Below, in pieces: positions 7,969 through 45,650 of a DNA stretch of 64,000 bases. Numbering within the stretch: the first letter of the stretch is position 1; each line of letters opens with the position of its first letter. The notes beneath the pieces were generated by a model. The model had not been told where the DNA came from. It did not search any database and worked only from the letters and a program-made list of their open reading frames with translations. Origin of the DNA: a virus (taxonomy: Duplodnaviria > Caudoviricetes); IMG/VR virus record IMGVR_UViG_2786546133_000001, positions 25,636-89,635 of that record; one strand, given 5' to 3'. The translations under genes and the position numbers were made by a program.

Positions 7969-8002
7969 TACCCTGTGTGTCGACTGCTGGTTGTGGGCCG
8001 AG
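7969..8002 (+). promoter_or_regulatory. Late leader element 1: TACCCT box + GCTGGTTGTGGGCCGAG
   Basis: One of 8 copies; ends 27 nt before ATG 8030. Confidence 0.75.
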
Positions 8003-8029
8003 TCAAGCGCTACCAGGGGATTCACGCTC

Positions 8030-8659
8030 ATGACTCAGGCCACGCACGTCCGGACCGCCGTCCTCGCCCTCGACGAGCTCACCCCGTATCCCGGTAACCC
8101 TCGCGTCGGGAACGTGCCGTCGATCCTCCAGAGCCTCCGCCGGAACGGGCAGTACCGCGGGCTCGTCGTCCGCGACGAAGGCAACGGCCGGCTCGTCATC
8201 CTCGCCGGCAACCACACCGCGAAGGCGCTCGCCGCGCACGGCCCGGAAGCCTGCGACTACACAGTCAAGGTCAACGGCACCGAGCGGCCCTGCGGCGTCT
8301 GCCAGAACCAGCCATGGGAGCCGAGCGCCCGCGTCGACGTCATCACCTGCGACGACGACACCGCCCGCCGCATCGTCCTCGCCGACAACAAGACCAGCGA
8401 CGACGGCACGTACGACAACGACGCCTTGGCCGAACTGCTCAGCTACCTCGACGAGGACGGCTACGAAGGCACCGGCTACAGCGACGACGAGGTCACGCGG
8501 CTGATCCACGTCGACCTCCCCGAGGGCTTCGAGTCGTACGCCGAAGACGTCGCCGACCAGCCCGGCACGTCGAGCAGCGAACCGGCGACCGCGTTCATTC
8601 ACACCTGCCCTAACTGCGGCCACGAGTTCCAGACCGGCGCGACCGGCACCGACAGCTGA
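8030..8659 (+). CDS. ParB/Srx-like nuclease-domain protein (paralog 2) with C-terminal Zn ribbon
   Basis: LTPYPGNPR...RNGQYRGLVV...ILAGNHT...LADNK; CPNCGHEF. Confidence 0.8.
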   Translation: MTQATHVRTAVLALDELTPYPGNPRVGNVPSILQSLRRNGQYRGLVVRDEGNGRLVILAGNHTAKALAAHGPEACDYTVKVNGTERPCGVCQNQPWEPSARVDVITCDDDTARRIVLADNKTSDDGTYDNDALAELLSYLDEDGYEGTGYSDDEVTRLIHVDLPEGFESYAEDVADQPGTSSSEPATAFIHTCPNCGHEFQTGATGTDS

Positions 8660-9708
8660 TGGGCGCCTACAAGGACCGACTCGACGCGCTGTGGGCGGCA
8701 CACGTCGCCCCGCGCGCCGACGACGCACCCACAGTCGTCAGCACGTTCGCGGGGGGCGGAGGATCGAGCCTGGGCTACGGCGCGGCCGGTTTCCGCGAGC
8801 TCCTCGCCGTCGAGTGGGACAAGCACGCCGCGATGTGCCTGCGTCGCAACTTCCCCGAGGTCGAGGTCTTCCACGGGGACATAGCCAAGGTCGACCCCTC
8901 GATCCTCGACCTCGCGCCCGGCGAGCTCGACGTCTTCGACGGCTCCCCGCCCTGCCAGGGCTTCAGCACCGCCGGGAAGCGGCAGATCGACGACCCCCGC
9001 AACGGCCTGTTCCGCGAGTACGTCCGCCTGCTCGACGCCTGGCAGCCGAAGGTGTTCGTGATGGAGAACGTGTCGGGCATGGTCAAGGGCCGCATGCGCT
9101 CCCTGTTCGCGGAGATCCTCGGCGCCCTCAAGACGGCCGGTCCGGGGTACCGCGTCGTCGCCCGGCTCGTCGACTGCGGGTACTTCGGCGTCGCCACCAT
9201 GCGACAGCGCATGATCTTCGTCGGCGTCCGCGAGGACCTCGCCCTCGACCCCGTCCACCCCGCCCCGCAGATGCGGCCGCCCGTCCTGCGCGACGCCCTC
9301 GAAGACCTCGGCGACCCCGGCCTCATCCTCCACCCCAAGGGCGGGATCACCACGCTCGCGCCGCTCGTACCGCCAGGCCGCGACGGCGCCGACGTCCTGC
9401 ACTCACGCGGTGCTCGACGAGCGTTCTTCAACCTCCAGCGCGCCCACTGGGACCGGCAATGCTGGACGATCACCAAGAGCATGGCCCCCGGACGTCACGG
9501 GATCATGCACCCCGACGAGAACCGCTTCCTGTCCTCGCGCGAGATCTGCCGCATCCAGGGCTTCCCCGACGCCTACGACTGGGGCGAGAGCCGGCTGCAA
9601 GACATCTGGGCCCGCGTCGGCAACAGCGTCCCGCCGCCCCTCATGCTCGCCGTCGCCTCCACCATCCGCGACCGCATCCTCACCCCCGCCCGCACCCGGC
9701 GCGAGTAG
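8659..9708 (+). CDS. DNA (cytosine-5)-methyltransferase
   Basis: Motif I FAGGGG, catalytic GSPPCQGFS, ENV, RQR, GNSVPP. Confidence 0.92.
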   Translation: MGAYKDRLDALWAAHVAPRADDAPTVVSTFAGGGGSSLGYGAAGFRELLAVEWDKHAAMCLRRNFPEVEVFHGDIAKVDPSILDLAPGELDVFDGSPPCQGFSTAGKRQIDDPRNGLFREYVRLLDAWQPKVFVMENVSGMVKGRMRSLFAEILGALKTAGPGYRVVARLVDCGYFGVATMRQRMIFVGVREDLALDPVHPAPQMRPPVLRDALEDLGDPGLILHPKGGITTLAPLVPPGRDGADVLHSRGARRAFFNLQRAHWDRQCWTITKSMAPGRHGIMHPDENRFLSSREICRIQGFPDAYDWGESRLQDIWARVGNSVPPPLMLAVASTIRDRILTPARTRRE

Positions 9709-9757
9709 TTGAAAACCAGAACTAGGACAAAGAACCGGACACGAGCGAGGGGGGCCC

Positions 9758-10183
9758 ATGCAGGGCAAGTCACCAAAGCAGCGGCTCACCGCCGCCGAGC
9801 GCCGTAAGCAGGCGTTCGGCCTGTACCTCGCCGGCGTCGACCTCGGCACCATCGCGCAGCAGGTCGGCTACGCCAACGCGAGCAACGCCCACCGCGCGAT
9901 CAAACAGGCCATCGAGGAGAGCACCGTCCGCGAGCAGCTCGAACAGACACAGGCGTCCATGGACGACGCTCGGCGCCTGGCCATGCTGCGGTACGACCGG
10001 CTACAGGCGGCGTTCTGGGGAGCGGCGGTCAAGGACAAGGACCGGCACGCGGCGAACATCGTGCTTAAGTGCATGGCGGGCCGGGACAAGCTGACCGGCG
10101 TCGAGGCGCCCCGCAAGGTCGAGCACTCGGGCGAGGTCACCACGTACGAGATCATCGGCGTCGACCCGGACGACCTCGTATGA
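9758..10183 (+). CDS. Terminase small subunit (putative)
   Basis: N-terminal HTH, KVEHSG tail, directly upstream of terL. Confidence 0.75.
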   Translation: MQGKSPKQRLTAAERRKQAFGLYLAGVDLGTIAQQVGYANASNAHRAIKQAIEESTVREQLEQTQASMDDARRLAMLRYDRLQAAFWGAAVKDKDRHAANIVLKCMAGRDKLTGVEAPRKVEHSGEVTTYEIIGVDPDDLV

Positions 10184-15053: not shown

Positions 15054-15280
15054 CCGGCCCGCAGACGCCCGGCACGCCGCCCCAGCGCCCGCGTGCCGTC
15101 CTCGCACGCCTCGACGTCGGCAACCTCCGCGAAGACCTGTGGTGTGCCGACTGCAAGGCGCTGAGCGGCTTCGCCGTCGATGTGCTCGCCATGCACGACG
15201 GCGGCGTGACCGTCGTCGGCACCGTGACCGGCTGCTCGATCTGCATGGACGCCGACCCTCCGGGGGTGGGCCGTGGCTGA
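15050..15280 (+). CDS. Small Zn-ribbon protein
   Basis: ATGA coupling to portal; WCADC...GCSIC. Confidence 0.6.
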   Translation: MTGPQTPGTPPQRPRAVLARLDVGNLREDLWCADCKALSGFAVDVLAMHDGGVTVVGTVTGCSICMDADPPGVGRG

Positions 15281-18200
15281 CACCGTGGACCAGGCGCTCG
15301 CCGACGCCGAGCGCGACGTCGCCGACGAGGTGCGCGCCGTCCTCGACGAACTCGCCGACGACATCGCCGCCGGCCTGGCGGACGCGACCGAGATCGTCGC
15401 CGCCCGCTGGTCGCTGTCTCGCATCGCCGGCATGTGGAGCGCGAAGGTGCCCCGCATCATGCGCCGGCTGTTCCGCGTCGCCGAGACGGCCGGCGAGCAG
15501 GCCGCGAACGACGTCGACGCCACGTTGCCCGACACGTGGGACGGCCTGCCCGGCCGGTACGACCGCGGCGACCTCCCGGCGTCGCTCGGCGACTACGCCA
15601 CCAGCACAGAGCACCTGTTGCGCGCCGTCGGCGACCGGCTCACCGAAGCCGCGGTCGCCGCGCTCGCCGAGGGCCTCGACGCAGGCGAGGACACCGCCCA
15701 GCTCCGCGCCCGGCTGCGTGCCCTGTTCGCCGCCGACGGCGCCCAGCTCGGCGAGTCCCGCGAGGAGCTGATCGCCCGGACCGAAGCCGTGCGCGCGTGG
15801 AATGGGGCGACGCTCGCCGCCGCGCAGGACCTGACGGGCGCGGACCGGCCGCTCGTCAAGCAGTGGCGCACCCGCGGCGACACCCGCGTCCGCGACAGCC
15901 ACCGCAAGGTGGACGGCTTCGTGCGGCTGCTCGACGACCCGTTCACCGTCGGCGGCGTCGACATGCAGTACCCCGGCGACCCGGCCGCGCCCGCCGACCA
16001 GGTCTGCAACTGCCGCTGTGTCCTGCGATTGCAGCGCGCCGAAGCGTCGGCGTCCGCAGGAAGTCAGGCGGGCCTCGGAGACGAATCTTCGAATCAAGGG
16101 CAGGCGACTGCCGCGGCTGACGGGAGCCACCTCATGGGCGGCATGATCGCGCTCATCCCCACCCGCGAGGACGCCGAGCGTCTCGCCCTCGACGGCGGCG
16201 AGGCCGCCGACGAACTGCACTGCACGCTGATGTTCCTCGGCGACCAGGGCGGCGACTGGACCACCGACCAGCGAAACGAACTGATCGCTGGTATCCGCGC
16301 GCGCTTCGCCGCGCTGCCCGGCCCCATCGACGCCCGCCTGTTCGGCGTCAACCACTGGAACCCCGGCGAGAACGGCGTATGGGTGTGGGCGACCGGCGAC
16401 GACAGCCCCGCCTACCCGGCGCTGCCCGACGCCCGCGCGCTCGCCGTCGAGGCGCTGGAAGACACCCACGAGCGCCCCGAGGTGCCCGAGCAGCATTCGC
16501 CCTGGGTCGCCCACGTCACGGGCGCGTACGACGCCGGTACGTGGCCTCTCGACCCGATGTGCGAGCGCCTCGGCCCGGTCCGGTTCGACCGCGTCCGCGT
16601 CGCGTTCGGCGGCGAGCACACGGACATCCCGCTCGGCCCCGAGGAGGAGCCCATGCCCGATACCAGCGCCGCGGCGTACGAGCCGCCCGTCCGCACCTGG
16701 TCCACGCCCGACGGCACCGCCCTTGCCTACGAGAACCAGGAGACCGGCGACGGCCGCGTGTTCGCCGCCGGCTCCCTGTACTGGGACGGCGCCGGCCCGT
16801 GGCCGCTCCAGTACGCCGACGAGATGGGCATGGGCCACGACGGCGCCGAACTCGCGGGCGCGATCCAGGCCATGAACCGCAACGGCGACCGGCTGACCGG
16901 TAACGGCGTGCTGTACCTGACGCAGCAAGCCGGCTGGGAGGCGTCGACGCTGCTCGACCAGAAGGCGCCGCTCGGCGTGTCCGTCGACCTCGATGACGTC
17001 AGTGTCGAGCTCGTCGACAACACCGCCCCGGCCGACGGGCAGCCGGCCGACGGCGGCGACGGGGGCGACGGCGCGCCGGTCCTCGCGTCCGCGACATACG
17101 CCCGCGCCTCCGTGCTGCGGCTCGGCGACGACGGATGGGTGATCACCGCGAGCAGCGCGATCGAGACGACCGCCTCGGCCGCCGCCCTCACCCGCGCCGT
17201 GCAGACCGTGCAGGTCATCTCTGGGCCAGGCGGCCGCATCCCCGCCGACACGGCGCGCGCCCTGTTCCCCGGCGCGCTGACGGCCGCCGCCGGCGACGCC
17301 GACAACCCGGACGGCGGGGTCGTCGTCCACGCCGAGAACGCAGGCGACTACCTGGTCCGCATCACCCGCGCCCGTGTCCGCGGCGCGACGCTCGTCGCGA
17401 TGCCCGCCTACGACAAGGCGCGCATCGTCATCGACCCCGAGCAGGTCCCCGAGGGCGAGCCGACGCAGGCGCCCGCCGAGGACGTCGCTGCGGCGGCCGG
17501 CTCCGACCTCACGCGGGTCGTCGCGCACGTCTGCGGCGCCCCGACGCCGGTCAGCGCCCGCGACGTCGCCGCCGCGCTCGGCCTCACCCTGTCGACGACG
17601 AAGCGGCACCTGCGCGCCGCCGTCCGTGACGAGCGGATCGTCCGCCTCGGGCGCGGCCTGTACGCCGCCCCGTCGACGATCCCCGAAGGCGACGTGTCGG
17701 CCGCCGCGACCGACGACCAGGCGACCGGCGAGCAGCCCACCGGCCACAACAGCGACGACGGCGACCACGGCCACGGCCACGGCATGACCGAACTGGAGGC
17801 GTCCGCCTGGACCGCCATGCGCGCCGCGCCGCCGATGCCCGCCGCCTGGTTCCGCGAGCCCACCGAGGAGGAACTGCCGCCCGGCAGCGGCGGCGTGCAC
17901 TTCGCGGACGGCCGGATCTGGGGATGGGTCGCACAGGCCGGTGTCCCGCACGCCACGCACGGCCGGAAGGTCACGATCGAGAAGCTCGCCGCGAACGACG
18001 GGCTGGACCTGTCGCACTTCCTGCGCGCCCGGTTCACCCTCGACGACGGCAGCGAGGTCCGCGCCGGCGCCTTCACGATGAACGTCGGCCACCACCGCGA
18101 CGGCTACGAATGCGAGACGGCAGCCTGCCAGTTCGACGACTCGCGGACCGTCGCCGGGATCGTCACGGTCGGCATGAGCGAGGGCGGCCTGTGGTTCAGC

Positions 18201-18665: not shown

Positions 18666-18818
18666 GTGGGATGCAACTGCAAGAACAAGACTCAGTACGA
18701 GGTCGTCAACAGCGAAGGGACGGTCGTGTTCGGGCCGACGCCGTACAAGACGACCGCCGACGCCATGGCGACCCGGCACCAGGGCACCGTGCGCGAGGTC
18801 GCGAAGGACGGCGGCTGA
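18666..18818 (+). CDS. Small protein MGCNCKNK... (not in ORF track)
   Basis: GTG start, 50 aa, AGGAAGG upstream, TGATG coupling to next gene. Confidence 0.65.
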   Translation: MGCNCKNKTQYEVVNSEGTVVFGPTPYKTTADAMATRHQGTVREVAKDGG

Positions 18819-19120
18819 TGGCGTGCGGATCGTGCGGCAGCCGCACCGTGGCCCGCAGCACGGGCACCGGCAGCGCTCCCGTGCGCACCCTGTATCAGGT
18901 CGTCCTCGACGGCGGTAAGGGCCGTACGGCGTTCCAGACGCACGACGTCAACCTTGCCCGGACCGTCCGGGGCAACTACCCGGGCAGCGTGCTCGTCCCG
19001 GACCCCGACGCCGACACCGGCGCCCCGACGATGACGGCGGACGAGCCGGTCGACGAGCAGACCGCCGCCGACGACGCCCAGACGCCCGCTGACGAGCCCG
19101 AAGGCACCGCCGGGCCCTGA
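18818..19120 (+). CDS. Small protein MACGSCGS..., related to the preceding gene
   Basis: Coupled start; YQVV..GG matches YEVV..EG of previous ORF. Confidence 0.65.
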   Translation: MACGSCGSRTVARSTGTGSAPVRTLYQVVLDGGKGRTAFQTHDVNLARTVRGNYPGSVLVPDPDADTGAPTMTADEPVDEQTAADDAQTPADEPEGTAGP

Positions 19121-19188: not shown

Positions 19189-19243
19189 TAAGATTCCTTT
19201 CGACCGCTGGTTATGGGCCGGGTCTCCTTGAGTCACAGGAGAC
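19189..19243 (+). promoter_or_regulatory. Late leader element 2: TAAGAT + GCTGGTTATGGGCCGGG + SD-occluding hairpin
   Basis: Motif 19206-19222; GTCTCCT pairs with AGGAGAC; ATG 19250. Confidence 0.8.
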
Positions 19244-31554: not shown

Positions 31555-31611
31555 TAAACTCAACTCTTGAGCCGCTGGTTTTGGGCCGGGCCCTCTGATC
31601 CTTCAGGAGGG
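31555..31611 (+). promoter_or_regulatory. Late leader element 3: TAAACT + GCTGGTTTTGGGCCGGG + SD-occluding hairpin
   Basis: Motif 31574-31590; CCCTCTGA pairs with TCAGGAGGG; GTG 31619. Confidence 0.8.
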
Positions 31612-31618
31612 TGCGGCC

Positions 31619-33196: not shown

Positions 33197-33208
33197 GGAG
33201 GCCCCGCC

Positions 33209-34194: not shown

Positions 34195-34231
34195 CCCGAG
34201 CCGTCGAGCGCTCGGCGCCGCGACCAGCGGC

Positions 34232-34295
34232 TACCCTCGGGGGTGCGCTGCTGGTTGTGGGCCGGGCGAGGAGCGGGAGACAGGGATACACCTGT
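34232..34295 (+). promoter_or_regulatory. Late leader element 4: TACCCT + GCTGGTTGTGGGCCGGG + hairpin over start codon
   Basis: Motif 34250-34266; ACAGG pairs with CCTGT; GTG 34294. Confidence 0.78.
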
Positions 34296-34833: not shown

Positions 34834-35069
34834 GGCGCATGCTGAACGCCGCCGAGGCCGCCATGAGCGCGGCGGCGGAAGACGACGCCGCGAGGCAGCG
34901 CAACCGGGCGAAGCTGTACGCGCCGCCGCCGCGTGCCGCTCGTAGGCAGACGGCGGGCACGAGCCGGCCGCGACCGGCGAGCGGAGGCCTGAGCCTGGAC
35001 GCCGCTCGGGCGCTCATGTCCCAGGTCGCGAGCGAGGACGCGCGGCTCACGGGCCGGCGCAGCGGATAA
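34728..35069 (+). CDS. Tail assembly chaperone -1 frameshift extension (GT)
   Basis: Overlapping -1 ORF PYYVVFRICDSIEAEW... begins near CGCCCTAC 34726-34733; exact shift site inferred. Confidence 0.6.
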   Translation, partial: PYYVVFRICDSIEAEWNAWDGSLALQGVDPHAWPLRRMLNAAEAAMSAAAEDDAARQRNRAKLYAPPPRAARRQTAGTSRPRPASGGLSLDAARALMSQVASEDARLTGRRSG

Positions 35070-35156
35070 TCTGGAGATCACGGCAGCGCCCCGGCGCTGC
35101 TGCTCGCCGACTGGTTATGGGCCGGGCACCGTTCACGACTTCGTGAGGGTGCCCGG
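35067..35156 (+). promoter_or_regulatory. Late leader element 5: TAATCT, hairpin, ACTGGTTATGGGCCGGG, long SD-occluding hairpin
   Basis: Motif 35110-35126; CCGGGCACC/GGTGCCCGG and TCACG/CGTGA stems; GTG 35156. Confidence 0.78.
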
Positions 35157-38100
35157 TGACCACCCCAGCCGGCGACAGCGAGGATTTCGGGTCCGCTCGG
35201 ATCACGATCACGCTCGACGACAGCGGCGCCCTCCGCGACGCGCGCGACCTCGGGCAACGCATTCAGCAGGCCCTCGACAGGGCGACGCGCAACACCGGCG
35301 ACCAGATCCGCCGGAACATCGAGCGCGGCCTGCGGGCGGCGGCCGTTTCCGTTCGCGTCGAACCGGACACCTCCCGGTTCCGTACGCAGCTCGCCGCCGA
35401 CCTGCGCGGCCTGGACACTTCGATCAGGGTCACGGCGGATCCGCAGTTTTTCCGGACCCGGCTTCAGGCCGCACTTCGCAGCACGGGCGGCCTGACCGTC
35501 GACATCGGCGTCAACGAGGCACGGCTGCGGGCCCGGCTGAACCGGGTCACGCGGCGGATGACGGCGAACGTCACCCTGGCCCCGGACACGACCCGCTTTC
35601 AGGCGCGGGTCAACCGGGCACTGCGCGGGATCACGGCTCAAGTCCGCGTCGAACCGGACGTCGCTCGTTTCGCTGCTCGGCTGCGGTCGCAGTTGCGGGG
35701 GCTCGGGGCCGTCACCGTCCAGGCGCGGGCGGACGCCGCTCGTTTCCGGCGGCAGTTGGAGCGCGACCTGCGCGGGCTGCCGCCGATCAGCATCCGGGTA
35801 GACCCGGATCTGTCTCGGCTGAACGACGCGCTTCGCCGTCACAACGCGCCGACTGTGCGTGTGCCGGTCGACGTCGACCGCAACCGGCTGACCAGGGCTC
35901 TCGGCAGCCTGACGAGCAGTCTCGGCAGCATCGGCAAGCGGGCCGGGACCGCGCTCGGCGGGCTGCTCAAATTCGGGGCTATCGGCATCGCGGCGGCGAG
36001 CGCCGCGCAGAGCGTCGCCGGTCTCGTCGCCGCGCTCGCCCCGGCCGCCGGGATCATCGCCGCCTTCCCCGCAGCGGTCGCCGGCGTACAGATCTCGCTC
36101 CAGACCCTCAAGCTCGCCGTCCTGGGCGTCGGGGACGCCCTGAGCGCCGCGTTCTCCGGGGACGCGAAGGCGTTTCAGGAGGCGCTCGACAAGCTCGCTC
36201 CGGCGGCACAGAAGGCCGTCCTCGCCGTCAAGGCGCTCCAGCCCGAGCTGTCGAAGGTCCAGCAGTCCGTACAACAGGCGTTCTTCCGGCAGTTCTCGGG
36301 CGACGTCGGCGCGGCGATCAAGAACCTGCTGCCGTTGCGGACGCAGCTCGCCGGGCTGGCCGGGGAGTTCGGCAAGGCCGCCGACGAGGGTCTGAAGTTC
36401 GCCGCGTCTCAGCAGGCCGTCGCGCCGTTGCGGCAGATCATCCAGGGCACGACGCAGGCGGCGTCGGGGCTTCAAGCGGTCGTCGCGCCGCTCGCGAAGG
36501 GCTTCCTCGACGTCGCCGCGGCGGTGTCGAAGGCGTTCGGCTCGCAGGTCGGCGGCGCGATCGCTCAGGCCGGCGCGCAGTTCGGGACGTTCCTGTCGGA
36601 GTTCGCCGCGTCGGGCCGGGCGGTCGACGCCGTCCGGGGCGCGGTCGGTGTCTTTCAGCAGCTCGGCGCGATCGCGTCGAACGTCGGCGCGATCATCTCG
36701 GGCGTCTTCTCCGCCGCGTCCGGGGCGGGCGGCGGGCTGCTGAACAACCTCCAGACGATCACCGGCGCGTTCCGCGAGTTCGTCCAGTCCGCGCAGGGAC
36801 AGGAGGCGATCGGGAAGATCTTCGGCACGATCGGGACGATCGCCGCGCAGCTCGGGCCGATCCTGTCCGCGCTCGTCGGCCAGCTCGGGCAGATCGCGCC
36901 CGCGCTCGGCCCCGTCTTCTCGACCCTCGGCCCGGCGATCACGGGCCTGATCAACGCGCTCGGGCCCGCCCTGGCGGCGATCGCGCCGAGTCTCCAGACC
37001 GTCGCCGCCGCCCTCTCCGATGCCTTCGAGTCCATCGGCCCCAGCCTGGGCCCGCTCGGGCAGGCGATCGCCCAGGTCGTCACCGCACTGGCCCCGCTGC
37101 TGCCGCTCGCCGGGCAGCTCGTGTCGGTCCTGGCGACCGCCCTCGCGCCCGTTCTCTCGACACTCGCACAGGCGTTCCAGCCGATCATCCAGGCTGTCGT
37201 TGGCGCGCTCATGCCGATTCTGCCGCCGCTCGCCGACGCGTTCGTTCAGCTCGTCACCGCCCTGACGCCCCTCGCGACCGGCATCGGCCAGGCGATCGCA
37301 CAGGTCTTCCAGATCCTCGGCCCGGTCCTGACGCAGGTCGCGAACGTCATCGCTCAAGTCGCGGTCGCGCTGGTGCCACTGATCACCGCCCTCACGAACG
37401 CCCTGCTGCCGATCCTGCCGCCCATCGTCCAAGCCTTCTCGGCGATCTTGCAGGCGATCGTTCCGATCCTGCCGCCGGTCGCGCAGCTCGTCGCCGCCCT
37501 GGCCCCGCTGCTGGTGACGATCACGAACCTGCTCGCCCCCGTGCTCCAGATCGCTGCGGCGTTCGTGTCGTGGACGGCGATCAACATCGTCGTGCCGGTC
37601 ATTCAGGCCGTCGTCGGCATCCTGACCGGCCTGTTGACCGCTTTGTCATCTGTCGTCACGTTCATCACGAATCTGCCGTCGCTGATCGTGGCGGGCCTGT
37701 CGGCCCTCGGCTCCCTGATCTCGACCGCTTTCACCGCAGTCGTCACGTTCTTCCAGGGTCTTCCGGGGATGATCCTGGCCGCGTTGCAGGCGCTGCCGGG
37801 GCTGCTGAGCAACCTCTTCCATCTGGCGCTTCAGGCCGTGGGCACGGTCATCGGTACCGGTATCGGCCTGGTGATCCTGCTGTTCACCCGCGTGCCGGGG
37901 CTGATCGGCAACGCGCTCGTCTCGCTCGGCTCGCTGCTGGTCAGCCTGTTCACGTCGGCGTTGAACGCGGGCAAGTCGGCGGTGTCCGCCGGGATCTCGG
38001 CGACCGTCTCGTTCTTCTCGCAGCTGCCGGGCCGCGCGGTGTCGGTCCTCTCGTCCCTGCCGGGCCGGGCGGCGTCGGTGCTGCGCTCGGCGGGTTCGGC

Positions 38101-39454
38101 CATGCTCGGCGCCGCCAGGTCGGCCGGCTCGCAGCTCACCTCGTTCTTCTCGGGCCTGCCGGGGAAGATCAAGGGCGCGCTGTCGGGGGCCGGGTCGGCG
38201 CTCGTGTCCGTGGGCCGCGACCTGATCCGAGGCCTGATCGCCGGTGTCAAGGCGATGGCGGGGTCCATCGCGTCGGCCGCGAAGGAAGTCGTCGGCTCGG
38301 CGATCAAGGCCGCGAAGAACGTCCTGAAGATCGGCTCGCCGTCGAAGGTGTTCATCGCGATCGGTAAGGACACCGGCAAGGGCTTCGTCATCGGCCTGAC
38401 CAGCAGCGCGGCGGAGATCAAGCAGACCACCGACAAGATCGCCGCCGACATCCGGAACGCCTTCAAGGGCAAGAACACCAAGCTCGACGACCGGCTGTTG
38501 AAGCTGATCTCGGACGGCAACAAGAAGCTGACGTCGCTCGCAACCCAGCGAGACGCGATCGCGAAGCGGATCGCCGACGCGCAGAAGTTCGCGGCGGACA
38601 CGGCCGCCTCCGCCTTGCAGGGGTTCTCGCTTCAGAACCTCACGCAGGGCGGCGTGAGCCTGTTCAACATCACCGAGGGCCTCGACCAGGGAATCGCGCA
38701 GGTCAAGAACTTCACGAAGGAGATCAACGACCTCGCGAAGCGCGGCCTGCGCAAGGACTTGCTGTCTCAGATCATCGGGCTCGGGCCGCAACAGGGCGCC
38801 CAGCTCGCCGAGTTCCTGTCGAACCAGTCGACGGCGAGCCTGAAGCAGATCAACAGCTTGCAGAAGCAGCTCGTCGCCGCGACGAACTCGCTCGGCAAGA
38901 GCGCGGCCGACGACTTGTTCGACGCGGGCAAGCAGGCGTCGCGGGGCTTCCTCGCCGGTCTCAAGGCGCAGGAAAAGGACATCGACGCCCTCATGCTGTC
39001 GATCGCGAAGTCGATGCAGAAGGCGATCCGTTCCGCGCTCGGCATCCACTCGCCGTCGGTCGTGTTCCGGAAGATCGGCGACCAGACCGGGCACGGCTTG
39101 CAGCTCGGCATCCTCGACCGGCTCGCCGCGCTGCGGGAGTCGACACGCAAGGCAGCCCAGGTCGTCGCGCTCGCCGCGACGAAGCCGCTCGCCGGTCTCG
39201 GCTCGCTCGTCGCCGCGCCCGTGGTCACGCCGACGCTCGCCGGCGGCGGGGGCACGGTGCCGCTGACCCGGTCGAGCAGCGCCGCGGCGGGCGTCGACGC
39301 GGGAAGCGTCGCCGACCTGATCCGCGGCGTGCGCCGGGCGAGCACGGGCAGCGCGGCGGGAGTCACGAACAACTTCACCGTTCAGGCGGCACAGGACCCC
39401 GAGAAGACCGCGCGGCTCGTCCTGCGCCGTCTGGCACAGGCGGGGATCGCGTGA
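35156..39454 (+). CDS. Tape measure protein
   Basis: 1432 aa, Ala/Leu/Gly-rich amphipathic repeats, IGSPSKVF and IHSPSVVF motifs. Confidence 0.9.
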   Translation: MTTPAGDSEDFGSARITITLDDSGALRDARDLGQRIQQALDRATRNTGDQIRRNIERGLRAAAVSVRVEPDTSRFRTQLAADLRGLDTSIRVTADPQFFRTRLQAALRSTGGLTVDIGVNEARLRARLNRVTRRMTANVTLAPDTTRFQARVNRALRGITAQVRVEPDVARFAARLRSQLRGLGAVTVQARADAARFRRQLERDLRGLPPISIRVDPDLSRLNDALRRHNAPTVRVPVDVDRNRLTRALGSLTSSLGSIGKRAGTALGGLLKFGAIGIAAASAAQSVAGLVAALAPAAGIIAAFPAAVAGVQISLQTLKLAVLGVGDALSAAFSGDAKAFQEALDKLAPAAQKAVLAVKALQPELSKVQQSVQQAFFRQFSGDVGAAIKNLLPLRTQLAGLAGEFGKAADEGLKFAASQQAVAPLRQIIQGTTQAASGLQAVVAPLAKGFLDVAAAVSKAFGSQVGGAIAQAGAQFGTFLSEFAASGRAVDAVRGAVGVFQQLGAIASNVGAIISGVFSAASGAGGGLLNNLQTITGAFREFVQSAQGQEAIGKIFGTIGTIAAQLGPILSALVGQLGQIAPALGPVFSTLGPAITGLINALGPALAAIAPSLQTVAAALSDAFESIGPSLGPLGQAIAQVVTALAPLLPLAGQLVSVLATALAPVLSTLAQAFQPIIQAVVGALMPILPPLADAFVQLVTALTPLATGIGQAIAQVFQILGPVLTQVANVIAQVAVALVPLITALTNALLPILPPIVQAFSAILQAIVPILPPVAQLVAALAPLLVTITNLLAPVLQIAAAFVSWTAINIVVPVIQAVVGILTGLLTALSSVVTFITNLPSLIVAGLSALGSLISTAFTAVVTFFQGLPGMILAALQALPGLLSNLFHLALQAVGTVIGTGIGLVILLFTRVPGLIGNALVSLGSLLVSLFTSALNAGKSAVSAGISATVSFFSQLPGRAVSVLSSLPGRAASVLRSAGSAMLGAARSAGSQLTSFFSGLPGKIKGALSGAGSALVSVGRDLIRGLIAGVKAMAGSIASAAKEVVGSAIKAAKNVLKIGSPSKVFIAIGKDTGKGFVIGLTSSAAEIKQTTDKIAADIRNAFKGKNTKLDDRLLKLISDGNKKLTSLATQRDAIAKRIADAQKFAADTAASALQGFSLQNLTQGGVSLFNITEGLDQGIAQVKNFTKEINDLAKRGLRKDLLSQIIGLGPQQGAQLAEFLSNQSTASLKQINSLQKQLVAATNSLGKSAADDLFDAGKQASRGFLAGLKAQEKDIDALMLSIAKSMQKAIRSALGIHSPSVVFRKIGDQTGHGLQLGILDRLAALRESTRKAAQVVALAATKPLAGLGSLVAAPVVTPTLAGGGGTVPLTRSSSAAAGVDAGSVADLIRGVRRASTGSAAGVTNNFTVQAAQDPEKTARLVLRRLAQAGIA

Positions 39455-39493
39455 CCGGCGGCGAGCAGCAGACGAAGGCGAGGAGCGTCGACC

Positions 39494-40828
39494 TTGTTGA
39501 CTGACTACATCTCCGTCGGAGGTGTCGAGATCGCGAACACGGCCCGTCTGCGTGAGTACCTGCGGACCGTGGGCTCGCCGCTCGACAGCGGGTCGGACAT
39601 CTGCGCCTGCGACACGTTCACGGCCGCCGTCCTCGGCGACGAGCCGTACACGACGCCGGACGACGCGGCGTCGCCGGCACCGTGGTACGACCCGAGCGAT
39701 CCGGCGTCGGCGGAGTTCGCCGGGTTCCTCGTCCTGTCCATGGACGGCGTCGATGACTTCCCCGTGAAGCGCACGGTGACGACGTCGGTCACGGGCGGCG
39801 GCTCGCTCGGACCGGCGCGCGTGCAGCCGCGTGACATCACCGTCTCGGGGATCCTGCTCGGGTCGACGTGCTGCGGCGTCGAGTTCGGGCTGCGCTATCT
39901 GGCGGCTGCGCTCCAGGGCTGCACGGGCTCGCAGTGCGGCGGCGACTGCGTCACGATGTACGACTGCTGTCCGGGCGAGGACATGACGGCCGCCGAGTTC
40001 AACGCCGCGCACCGCCGCACCTACCGGCGGGTGGCGTTGACGGACGGGCCGAAGGTGACCGGCCGGGCGGGAACGGGCTCGTGCGGCGGCGGACGCTGCT
40101 CGATCGGCGCCGACGTCGTCACCGTCGAGTTCACCCTGACCGCGGCGACGCCGTGGGCGTACACGGACGAGGTGCCGCTGCTGACGGTGGGCATCCCGAC
40201 CGACGACGACGGCGAGTGCGTCGAGTGGTGCATCCACGACAGCCGGCTTCCCGACTGGGTGCCGCAGTGCGGCGGCTGCCGCCTGGCGGACTGTGTGGAC
40301 TCGCAGGACGCGTGCGCGGATCCGACGTGTGTGCCGCCCGCCCCGCCGGTCCCGACGGCGCCCGAGACGTGCTTCTGTGCGTCCCTGGCGACGAGCCAGG
40401 AGTGTTACGAGGTCGACCTGTCGAACCGGTCCGGGTGGATCGACGACGTGCCGATCATCAATGTGTACGCGGGCAGCGAGGACCTGCGCCGGGTGTCTAT
40501 CAGCCTGTATCAGCGGACCGAGGCCGACGAGAACCTGACGTGTGCCGAGCTCGCCGAGAAGAAGCGTTGCGAGCCCTACGCGCGGTGGGAGATCGGTTTC
40601 GTCCCGGCGGGCGGCGAGCTGCTGCTCGACGGGCAGACGAGCAGGGCCACGCTGGATTGCAACCGGCAGTGCTCGTCGGCGACGTCGGTCTACGGCCGCA
40701 ACGGCTCGCCGCCGACCTGGCCCGTGCTGAACTGCGCCGCGTTCTGCCTGTGCATCGAATCGGACGCGTTCGTGCCGCCCGCCCCGGACGCGACGGTGTC
40801 CCTGTCGGTGTCGGGTAGGGCGTCCTGA
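39494..40828 (+). CDS. Distal tail (Dit-like) minor tail protein, very Cys-rich
   Basis: Follows tape measure; PRDITVSG, VEFTLTAATPW; about 28 Cys. Confidence 0.7.
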   Translation: MLTDYISVGGVEIANTARLREYLRTVGSPLDSGSDICACDTFTAAVLGDEPYTTPDDAASPAPWYDPSDPASAEFAGFLVLSMDGVDDFPVKRTVTTSVTGGGSLGPARVQPRDITVSGILLGSTCCGVEFGLRYLAAALQGCTGSQCGGDCVTMYDCCPGEDMTAAEFNAAHRRTYRRVALTDGPKVTGRAGTGSCGGGRCSIGADVVTVEFTLTAATPWAYTDEVPLLTVGIPTDDDGECVEWCIHDSRLPDWVPQCGGCRLADCVDSQDACADPTCVPPAPPVPTAPETCFCASLATSQECYEVDLSNRSGWIDDVPIINVYAGSEDLRRVSISLYQRTEADENLTCAELAEKKRCEPYARWEIGFVPAGGELLLDGQTSRATLDCNRQCSSATSVYGRNGSPPTWPVLNCAAFCLCIESDAFVPPAPDATVSLSVSGRAS

Positions 40829-41856
40829 TGGCCGGCCTGGGGTGCGCCGCGGAGTACACGGCCGTCGTCGCGGACCGTGACGGCGCGATCCTGTCCAACC
40901 TCGTCACCGTGACTCATGTCGAGTTCACGCGCGTGCTGAACGACGCGAGCACGGCCCGTGTCGTCGTCGTCCCCGACCTCGACTGTTGCGAGAAGCTCGG
41001 CGACGTCCGCTCGTGGCGGAACTGGCTGCACATCTACCGGAACGGCGACTACGTGTGGGGCGGGCCGATCCTGACGGCGGAATGGAGCCTCGGGCAGTTC
41101 GAGATCAACGCGGGCGACGTCATCTCGGTTCTCAACCGGCGTACGCCGCACGAGTCGAAGGCGTTCACGAACACGGACCTGACGGACATCGCGACGTGGC
41201 TGATCGAGGACGGTTTCCTTCCCGACGACCCCGGTCATACGGTGAACGTCCTCGCCCCGTCCGGGGTGTCTGGCTCACGCGAGTACACCGAGGACATCGG
41301 GCAGACCGGCGACCACCTGAAAGACCTCGCGGACACCGGCCTCGACTTCACCGCCGTCGGTAACTCGATCCTGCTGCTCCCCGACGACTGGAGCGCGAGC
41401 GTGGGCCTGCTGACGGACGCCGACCTTCCCGACGGCCTGAGCGTCGCCGAGGACGGGACGGCGCTCGCCACGCGGTGGATCGTCTACGGCAGCGACGACA
41501 GCGGCGTGAAGGGCGTCGCCGGCGGCGTCCACCCGTATTACGGGCTGATCGAGCGGAGCATCCAAGACACCTCGATCAAGGACAACGACTCTGCGACCGC
41601 GGCGGCGCAGTCGCGGCTGAACGCCTCTCTGCCCGTGCCGGTCTACATCGACACGCAAGAGGTCACGCTGTCGCCGGACGCGGGGGTCGACGTCACGCGG
41701 ATCGTGCCGGGCTGGTGCATCGACCTCGCAACGACGACGACGTGCCGGAACGTCTCGCAGCGTATGAAGATCACGGGTCTGCACGTGACGGCCGACGGCG
41801 ACGGCGAGTCGGTACAGGTCCAGCTCGGGCCCGTCAGCGCGGAAGGCGATGCGTAA
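40828..41856 (+). CDS. Minor tail/baseplate hub protein
   Basis: FTRVLNDAS...LHIYRNGDYVWGGPI. Confidence 0.7.
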   Translation: MAGLGCAAEYTAVVADRDGAILSNLVTVTHVEFTRVLNDASTARVVVVPDLDCCEKLGDVRSWRNWLHIYRNGDYVWGGPILTAEWSLGQFEINAGDVISVLNRRTPHESKAFTNTDLTDIATWLIEDGFLPDDPGHTVNVLAPSGVSGSREYTEDIGQTGDHLKDLADTGLDFTAVGNSILLLPDDWSASVGLLTDADLPDGLSVAEDGTALATRWIVYGSDDSGVKGVAGGVHPYYGLIERSIQDTSIKDNDSATAAAQSRLNASLPVPVYIDTQEVTLSPDAGVDVTRIVPGWCIDLATTTTCRNVSQRMKITGLHVTADGDGESVQVQLGPVSAEGDA

Positions 41857-42329
41857 TGGCGTACAGGGGACCGGCCTCGCGGACGCTGCCGGGGAATCCG
41901 CTCGGCGGCGTGCTGCGCGACATGGAACGTACGAGCCGCAAGGGCGGACGTCAGGGACCGCAGGGCGAGCAAGGCCCGCAGGGCGAGGCCGGGCCGCAGG
42001 GCGAACCAGGCCCGCCGGGACCGCCGGGACTGCCGGGCGCGTCGCCTGCCGCGGCGGTCGCGACCACGGGCAGCGACGGCCGCGCGGTGTGGACGTTCCC
42101 CGTGCCGTTCGCTGCCGCGCCGGTCGTCAGCGCGCTCGCCGTCGACCTCAACCCGGCCGACGATCGCACGGTGACGGTCGCCCTGGAGGCTGTGACGGCG
42201 ACGAGCGTCGCGGTCCGCGTGTGGCAGACGCAGCCGCTGCTCGGGCTCGGCGTGCTGCCGCTCGTGCCCGCGCAGGCGGGGGTACAGGTGCACCTCACGG
42301 CGATCGGGCAGCCGGCCGGGGATCAGTGA
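41856..42329 (+). CDS. Collagen-like repeat minor tail protein
   Basis: GPQGEQGPQGEAGPQGEPGPPGPPGLPG. Confidence 0.75.
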   Translation: MAYRGPASRTLPGNPLGGVLRDMERTSRKGGRQGPQGEQGPQGEAGPQGEPGPPGPPGLPGASPAAAVATTGSDGRAVWTFPVPFAAAPVVSALAVDLNPADDRTVTVALEAVTATSVAVRVWQTQPLLGLGVLPLVPAQAGVQVHLTAIGQPAGDQ

Positions 42330-42769
42330 CCGGCGGGCGCCCGCCGGTCTCCCTGCCGCGCGCCTGTGCGCGTCTGTCGGCCGCCCCAGGGCGGCGCCCC
42401 GTGCTCGCTTCGGGGGAAGTCCTCGCGGCGCTCGTACGGGGCCGCCAGGAGCCGCAGGGCGTGCTCGTAGCCGTCGCGCGCCTCGGGCCCGCCGCCAGGC
42501 CACGCCGACCAGTCGACGAGCTGCAACTTCGCGTGCAACTCGGCGAGCCTGGCCGGGTCGGCGTCAGGCACGGTCGCCGTCCTGATGTACTCCTCCATCG
42601 GGTACGGGTAGCCGTCGAGGAGCAACGTCGGGGCGTCGCCTTCCGAGACGATCTCGACGTCGTGCCCGTCGAAGATGCTCGGCACGAACCGGCGGCGCCC
42701 CTGCTGCGCCTCGATCTCCTCCTGATACCGCTCGCTCAGGTACGCGGCGAGCACGTCCATGGCGTCCAT
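42323..42769 (-). CDS. Hypothetical protein inserted antisense in tail region (moron-like)
   Basis: AGGAAGG RBS; ALRLLAAPY..R.DF C-terminal pattern. Confidence 0.6.
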   Translation of the reverse strand: MDAMDVLAAYLSERYQEEIEAQQGRRRFVPSIFDGHDVEIVSEGDAPTLLLDGYPYPMEEYIRTATVPDADPARLAELHAKLQLVDWSAWPGGGPEARDGYEHALRLLAAPYERREDFPRSEHGAPPWGGRQTRTGARQGDRRAPAGH

Positions 42770-42836
42770 GCGGGTCCTTCCTGCTGCTCGACGGACGGCT
42801 CGACAGGATGGCAGACGGGTGCGGAGCCGACGGCCG

Positions 42837-42869
42837 TAAGCTGATCGTCGCCGCTGGTTGTGGGCCGGG
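42837..42869 (+). promoter_or_regulatory. Late leader element 6: TAAGCT + GCTGGTTGTGGGCCGGG
   Basis: Motif 42853-42869; ATG 42896. Confidence 0.78.
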
Positions 42870-42895
42870 CACGTGCGATTCCCCGAGGGGTTCCG

Positions 42896-43615
42896 ATGGC
42901 GCGCGCTTGTGCTTGCGACACGTACTTCACCGTCAACTCGTCCACGGGTGAGCTGTGCCTGAAGCCGGGCACGCAGGGCCTGCGGCAGACCCTCTACTTC
43001 AGCGCCGGGACGTACACGTTCAACAAGGCCAACTATCCGTGGCTCGCGCGCGTCGAGGTCGAGGTGCAGGGCGCGGGCGGAGGATCGGCCGGCGCGAACG
43101 CCGACACGGGCGAGGCGATCGTCCGGCCCGGCGGTGCGGGCGGCGGCTACTCGAAGTCGCTGATTGACGCGTCCGCGCTCCCGGCGTCGGTGCCAATCAA
43201 GGTCGGGACGGGCGGCGCCGCGGGCACATCCACGACGGACGGCGGCGACGGCGAACCGTCGTCGTTCGGCAGCCTCGTCATCGCGAACGGCGGGAGCGGC
43301 GGCACCAACAACATGCCGTCGGGTACGACCGCGAGCACCTCCCAGGGCATCGCGGGGCCGACAGCGGGCACGGGCGACTTCGCGATCGGCGGCGGCGCCT
43401 CCGGGTCGGCGATCCGCTTGAACGGCAGTTTCGGCATGGCCGGCTTCGGCGGCGACTCGTTCCTCGGCACCGGCGGGCTCGGCCGCACCTCGCAGGGCAA
43501 CGGGCTCGGGAACCGCGGTTTCGGCGCGGGAGCGGGCGGCGCGCTTTCCTTCGGCGGCGCCGTCGACGGCGGAAAGGGCGGCGACGGGCGCGTGATCGTG
43601 CACCTCTACGGCTGA
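42896..43615 (+). CDS. Glycine-rich tail fibre-like protein
   Basis: VEVQGAGGGS...GGAGGGY...GGDGRVIV glycine-rich domain; starts MARACAC. Confidence 0.75.
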   Translation: MARACACDTYFTVNSSTGELCLKPGTQGLRQTLYFSAGTYTFNKANYPWLARVEVEVQGAGGGSAGANADTGEAIVRPGGAGGGYSKSLIDASALPASVPIKVGTGGAAGTSTTDGGDGEPSSFGSLVIANGGSGGTNNMPSGTTASTSQGIAGPTAGTGDFAIGGGASGSAIRLNGSFGMAGFGGDSFLGTGGLGRTSQGNGLGNRGFGAGAGGALSFGGAVDGGKGGDGRVIVHLYG

Positions 43616-43637
43616 TCTGCCGCCGGCTGCCGCGTCC

Positions 43638-43698
43638 TAGACTGAGCGGTAGCCGCTGGTTCTGGGCCGGGCACGAGCGCACCCCGAGAGGTGGTCGT
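43638..43698 (+). promoter_or_regulatory. Late leader element 7: TAGACT + GCTGGTTCTGGGCCGGG + SD hairpin
   Basis: Motif 43655-43671; ACGA/CACC pair with GGTG/TCGT; TTG 43700. Confidence 0.78.
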
Positions 43699-43699
43699 C

Positions 43700-44539
43700 T
43701 TGGCCAGGTGTCAGTGCGGCGGCGGCGGCTGCAACTGCGTGGTACAGGCGGGCGATAACGCCATCGTCACAGGCGGCGGGTCGACGGCGAACCCGTACGT
43801 CGTGACCGCTGTCACGAACTGCGACGAGGTCCGCGGCTGTCTGTCCGCCGGTCCGGGAATCGCCTTCGACCCGGCGACCGGCGTGATCGGCGCGGACGTG
43901 TCGAGCACGCCCGGGAACAACCTGGTCATCGACGCGAACGGCCTGTACGTGCCGACGGGCGCGGCGACCGTCCAGACCGGATGCGGGCTGCGCGGCGACG
44001 GGTCGGCGAGCGCGCCCCTGCGCGCCAACACCGCGACGTGGCCGTTCTCGTGCGACATCACCTCCAACGGCGGCGACGTCTACTGCGACCCGTCGTCGGG
44101 CCAGCTGATGACCGACCCGCCGTTCAAGGCCCGGTACCGCGAGGTGAACCTCGGCGACTCGTTCGCCGCTCGCGCGGTGCCCGCCAACGAAACGACGATC
44201 GACACGATCAGCGTCGCCCTGACCAACCCGGACCCGTGCCGGGACGCGTTCGTGATCGTGCACCGCGCCCTCGACGTCGACTTCAACCTCCCGGCCGACG
44301 GCGGGCAGGCCATGTCGGGGATCAACGGCGACGATCTGAACTACCTGAAGAATACGGGCAGCACGGCCATTACGGCCTGGCACGGGCAGCACAACGTGAT
44401 GCACAACAGCGTCATCGCGGCCGGTGCGACCCAGGCAATCAACCTGGCGATCACGCTCGGCCGGGGCGGCGGCGGCGCGACGTACACCCGCTTCCAAGCC
44501 ACGATCCGGGTGTGGCTGTTCTCCATCCCTCTGAGCTGA
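43700..44539 (+). CDS. Minor tail/fibre protein (paralog 1)
   Basis: MARCQCGGGGCNC; GSTANPYVV; TNPDPCR. Confidence 0.7.
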   Translation: MARCQCGGGGCNCVVQAGDNAIVTGGGSTANPYVVTAVTNCDEVRGCLSAGPGIAFDPATGVIGADVSSTPGNNLVIDANGLYVPTGAATVQTGCGLRGDGSASAPLRANTATWPFSCDITSNGGDVYCDPSSGQLMTDPPFKARYREVNLGDSFAARAVPANETTIDTISVALTNPDPCRDAFVIVHRALDVDFNLPADGGQAMSGINGDDLNYLKNTGSTAITAWHGQHNVMHNSVIAAGATQAINLAITLGRGGGGATYTRFQATIRVWLFSIPLS

Positions 44540-44553
44540 TCGGGGCCCGTGCT

Positions 44554-44859
44554 GTGGACGAGACCACCACCATCACGACGACGACGCGTTACTACCAGCT
44601 TCCCGACGGCCGGCTTCGCGAGGTGACGCTGACCGAGGGCGTGAGCGTGTCCCTGCCCGAAGGCGCGGTCGAGCTGGACGTCGCGGAGTACACGGCCGTG
44701 CTCGGCGTGATCGAGCAGGGGCGCGCCGCGGCGGAGGCGGCGCAGCAGGCGGCCGATCAGGCAGCGGCTCACGTCGCGTACGTCGCGCTCGCCGCGATCC
44801 TCCCGGACGCCGTCGCGCGACGCCTGTCCGGGTACACGCCGCTCGTCGACCTCGACTGA
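44554..44859 (+). CDS. Fibre chaperone-like protein (paralog 1)
   Basis: YYQLPDG...ARRLSGYTP. Confidence 0.6.
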   Translation: MDETTTITTTTRYYQLPDGRLREVTLTEGVSVSLPEGAVELDVAEYTAVLGVIEQGRAAAEAAQQAADQAAAHVAYVALAAILPDAVARRLSGYTPLVDLD

Positions 44860-44896
44860 CCAGGGCGGAGGCCCCAAAGGGCGCCGCTTCGCCTCA

Positions 44897-44954
44897 TACA
44901 CTGTCATCGCTGCTGGTTCTGGGCCGGGCTATGGACTCCACTCCTTCGGAGGGG
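44897..44954 (+). promoter_or_regulatory. Late leader element 8: TACACT + GCTGGTTCTGGGCCGGG + SD hairpin
   Basis: Motif 44912-44928; CTCC pairs with GGAG; ATG 44958. Confidence 0.78.
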
Positions 44955-44957
44955 CTC

Positions 44958-45650
44958 ATGGCAAGCTGCAAGTGCGGCGGCGGACAATGCAGTTGCGTCG
45001 TCATCGCCGGGCCCGGCGCGACCGTCACGGGTGCCGGTTCGACGGCCAACCCGTACGTGGTCGGCGCGGACCCGAACGTCACCGCCGGCTGCGGCATCAC
45101 GGGCGACGGGTCGGCGGCGAACCCTCTCACGGCGAACACCCAGACGTGGCCGTTCACGTGCGACATCGGCGCGAACGGCGGCGGCGTGTACTGCGACCCG
45201 GCAACGGGCGAGCTGCACACCGATCCCCCGGTCTGGGGGGAGTTCGAGGGGAACCAGCAGACCACGGCCCTGTCGACGCCCCTCCCCGTGCCTACGTCGG
45301 CGTCGCAGGTGATCGACACGATTTCGATCACTGTCACGAACCCGGACCCGTGCCGCCGCGCGCTCGGCTTCCTGTTCCGCGAGGTCGACCTCGACTTCAC
45401 GCTGCCGCCGAACTCGGGCGCCATGGCCAGTATCGACGGCGACGACATGAACTATCTCGGCAACCAGGGAAGCGGGACGATCTTCGCCACCCACTCCCAG
45501 GACAACAAGATCACCGTGCTCACCCTCAACCCTGGGGAGACGCGCACGATCACGATGAACGTCGAGGCCGGTCGAGGCAGCGGCGGAGCGACGATCACCC
45601 GCATCCAGAAGTCCCTTCGGGCGTGGTTCTGGACGCCCCAGTTCAACTGA
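44958..45650 (+). CDS. Minor tail/fibre protein (paralog 2)
   Basis: MASCKCGGGQCSC; highly similar to 43700-44539. Confidence 0.7.
   Translation: MASCKCGGGQCSCVVIAGPGATVTGAGSTANPYVVGADPNVTAGCGITGDGSAANPLTANTQTWPFTCDIGANGGGVYCDPATGELHTDPPVWGEFEGNQQTTALSTPLPVPTSASQVIDTISITVTNPDPCRRALGFLFREVDLDFTLPPNSGAMASIDGDDMNYLGNQGSGTIFATHSQDNKITVLTLNPGETRTITMNVEAGRGSGGATITRIQKSLRAWFWTPQFN

Follow-up and report, generated by a model that had tools for sequence, protein, structure and literature searches.

The control of late genes in phages is classically transcriptional and is exerted by Q, late sigma factors or activators. In phage Mu, a stem covers the Shine-Dalgarno (SD) sequence and start codon of mom, a short binding element lies directly 5' of it, and occupation of this element is thought to open the ribosome-binding site (RBS); mom is the one target gene, and its activator, Com, is a zinc-finger protein of 62 amino acids (aa). 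Small promoter-proximal RNA hairpins read by a protein are also represented by lambda boxB and the BglG/LicT RAT, the lambda nut site being composed of a boxB stem with a GNRA-like pentaloop and boxA and served by an N-type protein. Here, a stretch of 64,000 nucleotides (nt), hereafter the window, was analyzed. It covers positions 25,636 to 89,635 of an 89.6-kb IMG/VR provirus record of the Streptomyces type with 71% G+C (IMGVR_UViG_2786546133_000001, Caudoviricetes), and it contains eight copies of a short leader element placed at a similar distance from the start codons of the genes that follow. The evidence supports an RNA hairpin on the sense strand, and we tentatively propose that this hairpin is one of two states of a leader gating the translation of late mRNAs.

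As in the Mu system, the SD sequence and start codon are predicted to be sequestered in a stem above the shuffled expectation (paired probability of 0.69 versus 0.59 in 188 leaders, together with covariation of the helix). Unlike in Mu, there are eight virion-gene targets per genome, and the 5' element folds into a covarying hairpin of its own, one strand of which is also used by the inhibitory helix. Seen as a Mu-type competing element, the hairpin would share 2-4 nt or more with that helix, its binding by a factor being presumed by analogy. According to the available text of PMC3203893, the SAS of Cluster K mycobacteriophages is a 13-bp repeat of the GGGATAGGAGCCC type, which includes the SD sequence, lies 3-7 bp from the start codon and is found at non-structural genes only; for the ESAS repeats, RNA pairing was found unsupported by the authors of that study. 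The present element resembles SAS/ESAS as a short, asymmetric actinobacteriophage repeat with many copies in one orientation, linked to start codons and suspected of a role in translation, but it differs from SAS in its length (21 nt), its position 24-34 nt upstream, the absence of an SD sequence, its association with virion genes and an RNA structure backed by covariation. It also differs from the L5 stoperators, duplex-DNA sites of the immunity repressor, in being RNA-like and invariant across many phages. No curated Rfam family matches the motif: nothing reached the gathering score in the whole window, and the two weak matches obtained at E≤5 in 31500-35250 fall on none of the three copies located there. 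The motif is not mentioned in the available main text of PMC5511901, PMC11536984, PMC13722658 and PMC10732093, and a full-text literature search of main texts found no description of it, the nearest repeats being the Cluster K SAS/ESAS. In our assessment, the element represents a new family of cis-regulatory leader RNAs that is used throughout a regulon.

The conserved block, its spacing and its hairpin

The 17-nt pattern RCTGGTTNTGGGCCGRG has eight exact matches in the window and none in 100 shuffles. The motif starts at 7986, 19206, 31574, 34250, 35110, 42853, 43655 and 44912, always on the plus strand and always between genes. The pattern scan reproduced exactly the copies, strand, intergenic position, box distances and start gaps that the initial annotation had listed, and no further copy was found in the window with two mismatches allowed or in the remaining 25.6 kb of the provirus record with one mismatch allowed. 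From copy 1 to copy 8, the variable base N reads G, A, T, G, A, G, C and C, the distance from a TANNNT box to the motif is 11, 11, 13, 12, 37, 10, 11 and 9 nt, and that from the motif end to the start codon is 27, 27, 28, 27, 29, 26, 28 and 29 nt. As for the target genes, the ParB-like, capsid, tail tube, chaperone and tape measure assignments held, those of chaperone and tape measure following from homology to annotated genes of the Streptomyces phage TurkishDelight; of the three genes taken for fibres, one is fibre-like and two belong to no assigned family.

A set of 197 non-redundant leaders was used to define the anatomy of the element. Although the 17-nt motif is exact, the conserved block proved wider, with 21 nt at positions -3 to +17 (GCC-GC-UGGUU-NUG-GGCCG-GGC), of which N7 alone is free. 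A TANNNT box is found within 20 nt upstream in 146 of these leaders, where base composition would give roughly 5% by a rough estimate, and its fifth base, left open in the earlier description, is C in 88% of the 146 boxes, which narrows the consensus to TANNCT. The gap between the box and the hairpin base is spread flatly over 6-10 nt. Neither a -35 signal nor a TGn was found across the box-bearing leaders, and no canonical two-hexamer promoter was found in 30000-46000. Promoters of the housekeeping sigma factor have a -10 TANNNT near the start, and in actinobacteria the -35 is optional; the TANNCT box is real and probably a -10 element. In the tape-measure leaders of other proviruses, a GC-rich stem-loop is often inserted between box and hairpin.

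On the downstream side, the motif end lies 24-34 nt from the best start codon in 168 of the 197 leaders, with a mode of 27-30 nt. The two spacings were compared in an unbiased set, which happens also to number 168, of copies from multi-copy loci: the box is at 6-11 nt in 116 of them and the start codon at 24-34 nt in 133, with 92 copies having both at the usual spacing, 41 the start spacing only and no box, and 11 neither. Thus, the element is tied to both, with a slight preference for the start codon. A closer link of the motif to the start codon than to the box, as first claimed, is therefore true of the window but only mild across relatives, in which the start-codon spacing itself is conserved.

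Unguided RNAalifold prediction on 20 tail-tube leaders pairs GCC (-3 to -1) with GGC (15 to 17) around UGGUU/GGCCG. In the resulting hairpin, the basal helix is 3 bp long and is followed by a bulge of 2 nt (GC) and an inner helix of 5 bp, three of whose pairs are G·U; the loop is NUG. The initial annotation had already drawn the five inner pairs correctly, but G15 pairs with position -1 rather than with C1, and G0 and C1 form the bulge. In the 197 leaders, changes in the basal helix are matched by their partners: A15 occurs with U-1 in 8/8 cases, A16 with U-2 in 5/6 (the exception, L062, has a non-phage context) and U17 with A-3 in 8/12. Over the three basal pairs, U·G was found in 44 cases (36+6+2) and C·A or A·C in 2 (0+0+2). 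For a formal covariation test, 158 copies were chosen by context (box and downstream open reading frame [ORF], with up to 5 mismatches) and 150 were tested, two from L246 and six from TurkishDelight being left out. Standard pairs make up 98.5% of the cells, against 20-62% for slid partners, and 15 cells are compensatory, compared to 1.5±1.1 in shuffles (0/500 shuffles reach 15), with two-sided changes seen in the three basal pairs. The copies of the window covary among themselves as well (ACU..AGU, ACC..GGU, GCC..GGC and GCU..GGC). Since U·G is tolerated and C·A nearly excluded, the pairing fits sense-strand RNA and not a DNA palindrome. Compensatory covariation and tolerance of G·U thus lend support, from comparative sequence evidence, to the earlier suggestion that the element acts as RNA on the sense strand.

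The inner helix is the more uniform part. A covariance-model search of the cluster BG phages returned inner-helix variants with a one-sided change of U5 to C only, together with loss of the 6:10 pair. The loop is NUG or UNUGG. Taken alone, the hairpins of the window copies have energies of -1.8 to -5.2 kcal/mol and are not the free-energy minimum; forcing them costs 1.8-19 kcal/mol relative to that minimum.

Pairing over the ribosome-binding site and the proposed switch

The 3' strand of the hairpin, GGCCGGGC, is G-rich and can pair with the C-rich spacer and start region 25-30 nt downstream. In 22 tape-measure leaders, G14-C17 and the next three bases pair with the sequence adjoining the start codon. 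This helix is paired in 96.1% of the cells, with an AU/CG exchange of 15:6 (slid partners 22-59%), and has 7 compensatory cells versus 2.0±1.0 in shuffles (0/500). With the 5' half of the hairpin taken away, a pair is predicted for position 17 in 164 of 188 leaders (C-G 153, U-A 8, U·G 2, G-C 1), mostly with a partner 3-10 nt before the start codon or within the first two codons. This position therefore has two partners with which it covaries, as mutually exclusive structures predict, and in these folding models the hairpin and the downstream helix exclude each other.

As a control, 30 dinucleotide shuffles of each variable segment were made for the 188 leaders. In addition to the higher paired probability of SD and start given above, the ensemble energy is -22.3 kcal/mol versus -19.5 kcal/mol in shuffles, and pairing between the motif 3' half and the start region has a probability of 0.46 versus 0.33 (Wilcoxon p=4e-8, a value inflated since the leaders share descent). 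The small hairpin itself has a predicted probability of 0.15 in these leaders.

Considering these features together, our preferred reading, to which we give a probability of about 45%, is that of a promoter-proximal two-state leader RNA that gates the translation of late mRNAs, presumably via a bound factor. Each copy would act in cis as an RNA element placed at, or close to, the 5' end of a late-gene message, with transcription starting from the TANNCT box at a presumed site 0-4 nt 5' of the 21-nt hairpin; as the box is probably a -10 element, promoter and leader functions would coexist. In the default state, the 3' strand of the hairpin would pair downstream and bury the SD sequence and start codon; since the long-range helix is more stable than the hairpin, we propose that late mRNAs are closed by default. 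In the other state, the conserved hairpin would form and the RBS would be freed. A specific factor, whether phage- or host-encoded, would hold the weak hairpin shut and so open translation. We infer such a reading factor because the hairpin is weak and yet its bulge, G·U pairs and loop are fixed across several host genera; the direction, activation, is likewise our inference. Promoters with only a -10 element before prophage late genes would be expected to leak in lysogens, and a translational lock would render this leak harmless.

Several points weigh against this proposal. Besides the inflated p-value, the excess of pairing over shuffles is only moderate. The inner helix is invariant among exact copies and has no two-sided covariation, and the cluster BG variants lose the U6·G10 pair, which leaves a 5-nt loop. 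In several copies, the hairpin shares only 2-4 nt with the downstream helix. Folds that cover the SD and start, as first claimed, are predicted for most window copies and exceed shuffles in the 188 leaders, but the downstream helices are weak in copies 1, 4 and 6, copy 4 having been missed as a weak case. Moreover, the box may not be a promoter, in 24 of the 168 copies from multi-copy loci a box is present while no start codon was detected at 24-34 nt, late timing of the genes is assumed from gene content alone, and the same anatomy fits repression equally. Finally, no non-structural gene common to the provirus, TurkishDelight, phage Xkcd426 and five further, incomplete proviruses was found by tblastn.

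In this tblastn comparison of the provirus ORFs, virion-module genes and an HNH endonuclease alone recur. Given the lack of a shared non-structural gene and the incompleteness of five of the records, the factor may be a host protein or a protein of the structural module. The initial proposal of a translational lock that lasts until a phage factor binds is thus supported in part: it retains its RNA element, an RBS paired above shuffles and a weak, out-competed hairpin, which is how a lock opened by a factor, as in Mu Com/mom, would be expected to be built, but lacks a shared factor gene. No small zinc-finger activator is named in Pfam scans of 40 ORFs (a part of the ORF set). Individual candidates were also considered and rejected. 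A 418-aa helix-turn-helix protein encoded upstream of the window (provirus bases 16956-18212) matches gp76 of Xkcd426 and nothing in TurkishDelight, and it is unrelated to the sigma-like gp12 of phiC31 (E=0.27). The GP88-family gene located just 5' of copy 1 is not common to TurkishDelight. Pairing with the 16S rRNA was dismissed because the duplex with Streptomyces 16S has -30.3 to -34.4 kcal/mol versus -29.8±2.3 for shuffled motifs, and so was mimicry of the 16S rRNA, for which the best sense-strand similarity is 12/20.

Other functions could be assigned to a conserved hairpin at this place. It might be a 5'-terminal stabiliser, or a cleavage/processing mark that releases stable monocistronic messages, with the RBS helix being incidental or tuning the yield. 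If transcription starts about 7 nt after the box, the box-hairpin gap of 6-11 nt would leave 0-4 unpaired nt at the 5' end; capsid and tail tube, the virion proteins of highest abundance, are among the targets; the lack of a phage factor common to the carriers suits a host enzyme; and the boxless copies sit inside operons, where processing makes sense. We nevertheless consider this function unlikely, since a stabiliser requires just a stable stem, whereas here the stem is weak and every base except N7 is fixed, and since it would remain unexplained why the 3' strand is selected to pair with the start region. The tape-measure hairpin, which lies at least 33 nt from its box and behind another stem-loop, does not suit a 5'-terminal position either. 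Quite improbable, in our view, is an element of the nut or RAT type, in which the nascent hairpin, with or without a protein, would modify RNA polymerase or block an attenuator and so allow late read-through. The likeness to RAT is real insofar as a weak, conserved hairpin and a stronger stem downstream of it have one strand in common, which is the logic of RAT and terminator; elements and promoter-like boxes also occur in a ratio of about one to one, much as each early promoter of lambda has one nut site, and in tandem duplicates the first copy holds the box spacing. However, unlike in nut and RAT, the competing stems carry the SD and start codon and have no U tract, and the copies number eight per genome. 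None of the terminator-like sites in 30000-46000 is at a leader (4 found, 4.1 expected in shuffles), the terminator-like stem at the tape-measure gene is 5' of the hairpin, where the hairpin cannot aid read-through, and the 41 boxless copies mentioned above still hold the start-codon spacing. No boxA, N-like protein or CAT-domain protein turned up, although no search aimed at boxA or N was made.

The initial annotation had named a DNA-level site as the alternative; such a site could be a stoperator-type operator of a late repressor or a late-activator site over +1 to +21 of late promoters. The element is indeed asymmetric, multi-copy, intergenic and in one orientation to transcription, as are the L5 stoperators in the available text of PMC3203893, and it lies directly 3' of a -10-like box without a -35. 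The excess of U·G over C·A (44 versus 2) would, however, be meaningless for the recognition of duplex DNA, and a fixed geometry between activator and polymerase would not allow a box spacing as loose as the one seen, which is flat over 6-10 nt and has outliers at 13-37 nt; because of this asymmetry and this looseness, a DNA site is the weakest of the explanations set against the two-state leader, and we regard it as very improbable. Furthermore, phages of several host genera carry the identical sequence, in contrast to what is seen with immunity operators, and the variable downstream sequence has been selected to pair with the site.

Distribution among phages and prophages

The core motif was searched in IMG/VR, with matches in at least 119 stretches, and in a set with one genome per prokaryotic species, with matches in at least 120 stretches. 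Among the matches listed, a TANNNT box lies 6-11 nt 5' of the hairpin base in 100 of 182 copies from IMG/VR and in 63 of 148 copies from the prokaryotic species, and there are at least 54 multi-copy loci (35 and 19, respectively), with no locus carrying copies on both strands. The remaining single copies listed are in unrelated bacteria and have no box; they look like chance or coding matches. The promoter-like context was found, among the same matches, in Streptomyces, Kitasatospora, Embleya, Nonomuraea, Planomonospora, Planotetraspora and Sphaerisporangium. Conservation of the 21-nt block extends over IMG/VR proviruses, prophages of Streptomyces and Streptosporangiaceae and the cultured phage TurkishDelight, the only one of 50,697 deposited phage records in which a 61-nt query around copy 6 recovered the element. 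TurkishDelight is temperate and has nine exact copies on one strand, which precede capsid, major tail (tandem), chaperone, tape measure (tandem) and minor tail genes. The five further proviruses, whose records are 56-85% complete, have 6-9 copies each (37 exact copies), on a single strand per record. In the lytic cluster BG (Woodruffvirus) phages, the variant GCUGGCGUUAGGCCGGGU follows a TANNNT box and precedes capsid and major tail genes, and in phiC31 the element was not found (best covariance-model match E=0.13). The motif and covariance-model search of actinophages and prophages proposed at the outset thus recovered the element in proviruses and TurkishDelight and a variant of it in cluster BG. 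Among matched sequencing runs, three soil DNA runs have 5-6% of the sampled words, and no RNA run is among them.

Tandem double hairpins, 23-39 nt apart, are present before the major tail, tape measure and fibre genes of other phages, for instance in L140 (18517/18556 and 22908/22934), L012, L055, L077, L084 and L087. Within such duplicates, the first copy holds the box spacing and is the only one with a box, while the second holds the start spacing.

Individual leaders, neighbouring genes and significance

All boxes and hairpins of the window are on the plus strand. Copy 1 consists of the box TACCCT (7969..7974), which is -10-like and of a type enriched across relatives, and a hairpin at 7983..8003, followed by the ParB-like gene at 8030 (phrog_723). 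In its basal helix, ACU..AGU, all three pairs are altered and all retain pairing. The ParB-like gene opens a methylase-terminase block: 8030-9708 comprises this gene and then one for a C-5 cytosine methyltransferase (PF00145, E=3e-57), and the terminase genes come directly after. In TurkishDelight, the ParB-ParB-methylase order is the same, but no hairpin copy is present there. For copy 2, the box is TAAGAT (19189..19194) and the hairpin, with ACC..GGU, is at 19203..19223, upstream of the major capsid gene at 19250; GUCUCCU at 19222-19228 can pair with AGGAGAC across the SD.

The tail genes carry the next three copies. Copy 3 (box TAAACT, 31555..31560; hairpin 31571..31591) precedes the major tail protein gene at 31619, and copy 4 (box TACCCT, 34232..34237; hairpin 34247..34267, in which GCU..GGC includes a U·G pair) the tail assembly chaperone gene at 34294. 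The box of copy 5, TAATCT (35067..35072), overlaps the stop codon of the chaperone frame and is 33 nt 5' of the hairpin, which has a 3-nt bulge (GAC) and lies at 35106..35127, upstream of the tape measure gene at 35156. Here, CCGGGCACC can pair with GGUGCCCGG, which adjoins the GUG start. Between the TAATCT box and this hairpin, a GC-rich stem-loop, GCAGCGCC..GGCGCUGC, is located at 35082-35103.

Copies 6 to 8 precede three distal tail or fibre-like genes. These are the fibre-like gene at 42896 (phrog_863), after the box TAAGCT (42837..42842) and the hairpin at 42850..42870; a gene at 43700 with a TTG start and the N-terminus LARCQCGG, after TAGACT (43638..43643) and the hairpin at 43652..43672; and a gene at 44958 with the N-terminus MASCKCGG, after TACACT (44897..44902) and the hairpin at 44909..44929. 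Cys-rich N-termini (MARCGCGG, MASVCVC, MAKCCG) follow the hairpin in 70 of the 197 leaders by a crude grouping that includes a few mis-sorted or chance rows, and the genes at 42896, 43700 and 44958 are the examples in the window. Just 5' of the capsid leader, two small tandem ORFs (18666-18818 and 18818-19120) have the N-termini GCNC and ACGSC; for the second one, DUF7196 is a lead in Atlas only, with a score of 0.85.

Upstream of these ORFs, 15273-18662 encodes a MuF-like capsid morphogenesis fusion protein of 1129 aa, residues 760-799 of which have a weak match to the winged-helix family AbiEi_4 (E=1.7e-4, below the curated cutoff). In the position of the small terminase, the 141-aa gene at 9758-10183 matches phrog_645 (E=2.4e-27), labelled 'Rnase E' in PHROGs, and its counterpart, gp2 of phiSAJS1, has the same label. 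The gene has no Pfam, NCBIfam or PDB sequence match, and it is conserved in both TurkishDelight and Xkcd426; its label may stem from an artefact of annotation. An integrase gene is located at the left end of the provirus record (G000, bases 1-1647), and at the far right end of the window (56258-62942) there are minus-strand homologues of the Cro, exonuclease, RecT and DnaQ-like genes of TurkishDelight. This layout may reflect a permutation of the record with respect to TurkishDelight or the presence of more than one element in it.

Whatever its mode of action, this structured leader RNA stands before major virion genes, has been conserved down to the single base in the prophages of several actinobacterial genera and is absent from Rfam, and its hosts belong to a phylum that, to our knowledge, has neither Hfq nor CsrA. 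The hairpin is a defined bait for an RNA-binding regulator, the element is a compact and portable expression element for Streptomyces engineering, and its sequence is a tag by which the late modules of this lineage of prophages can be located in genomes. SAS and other actinophage repeats that lack an explanation merit scrutiny at the RNA level. That the virion regulon of a large clade of temperate actinobacteriophages is gated post-transcriptionally by one 21-nt RNA switch and one RNA-binding factor is a broader idea that we hold to be doubtful, if possible. If true, a post-transcriptional late switch would take the place of the late sigma factor, activator or antiterminator of other phages, and one RNA-binding factor would unlock the synthesis of capsid, tail and fibres together.

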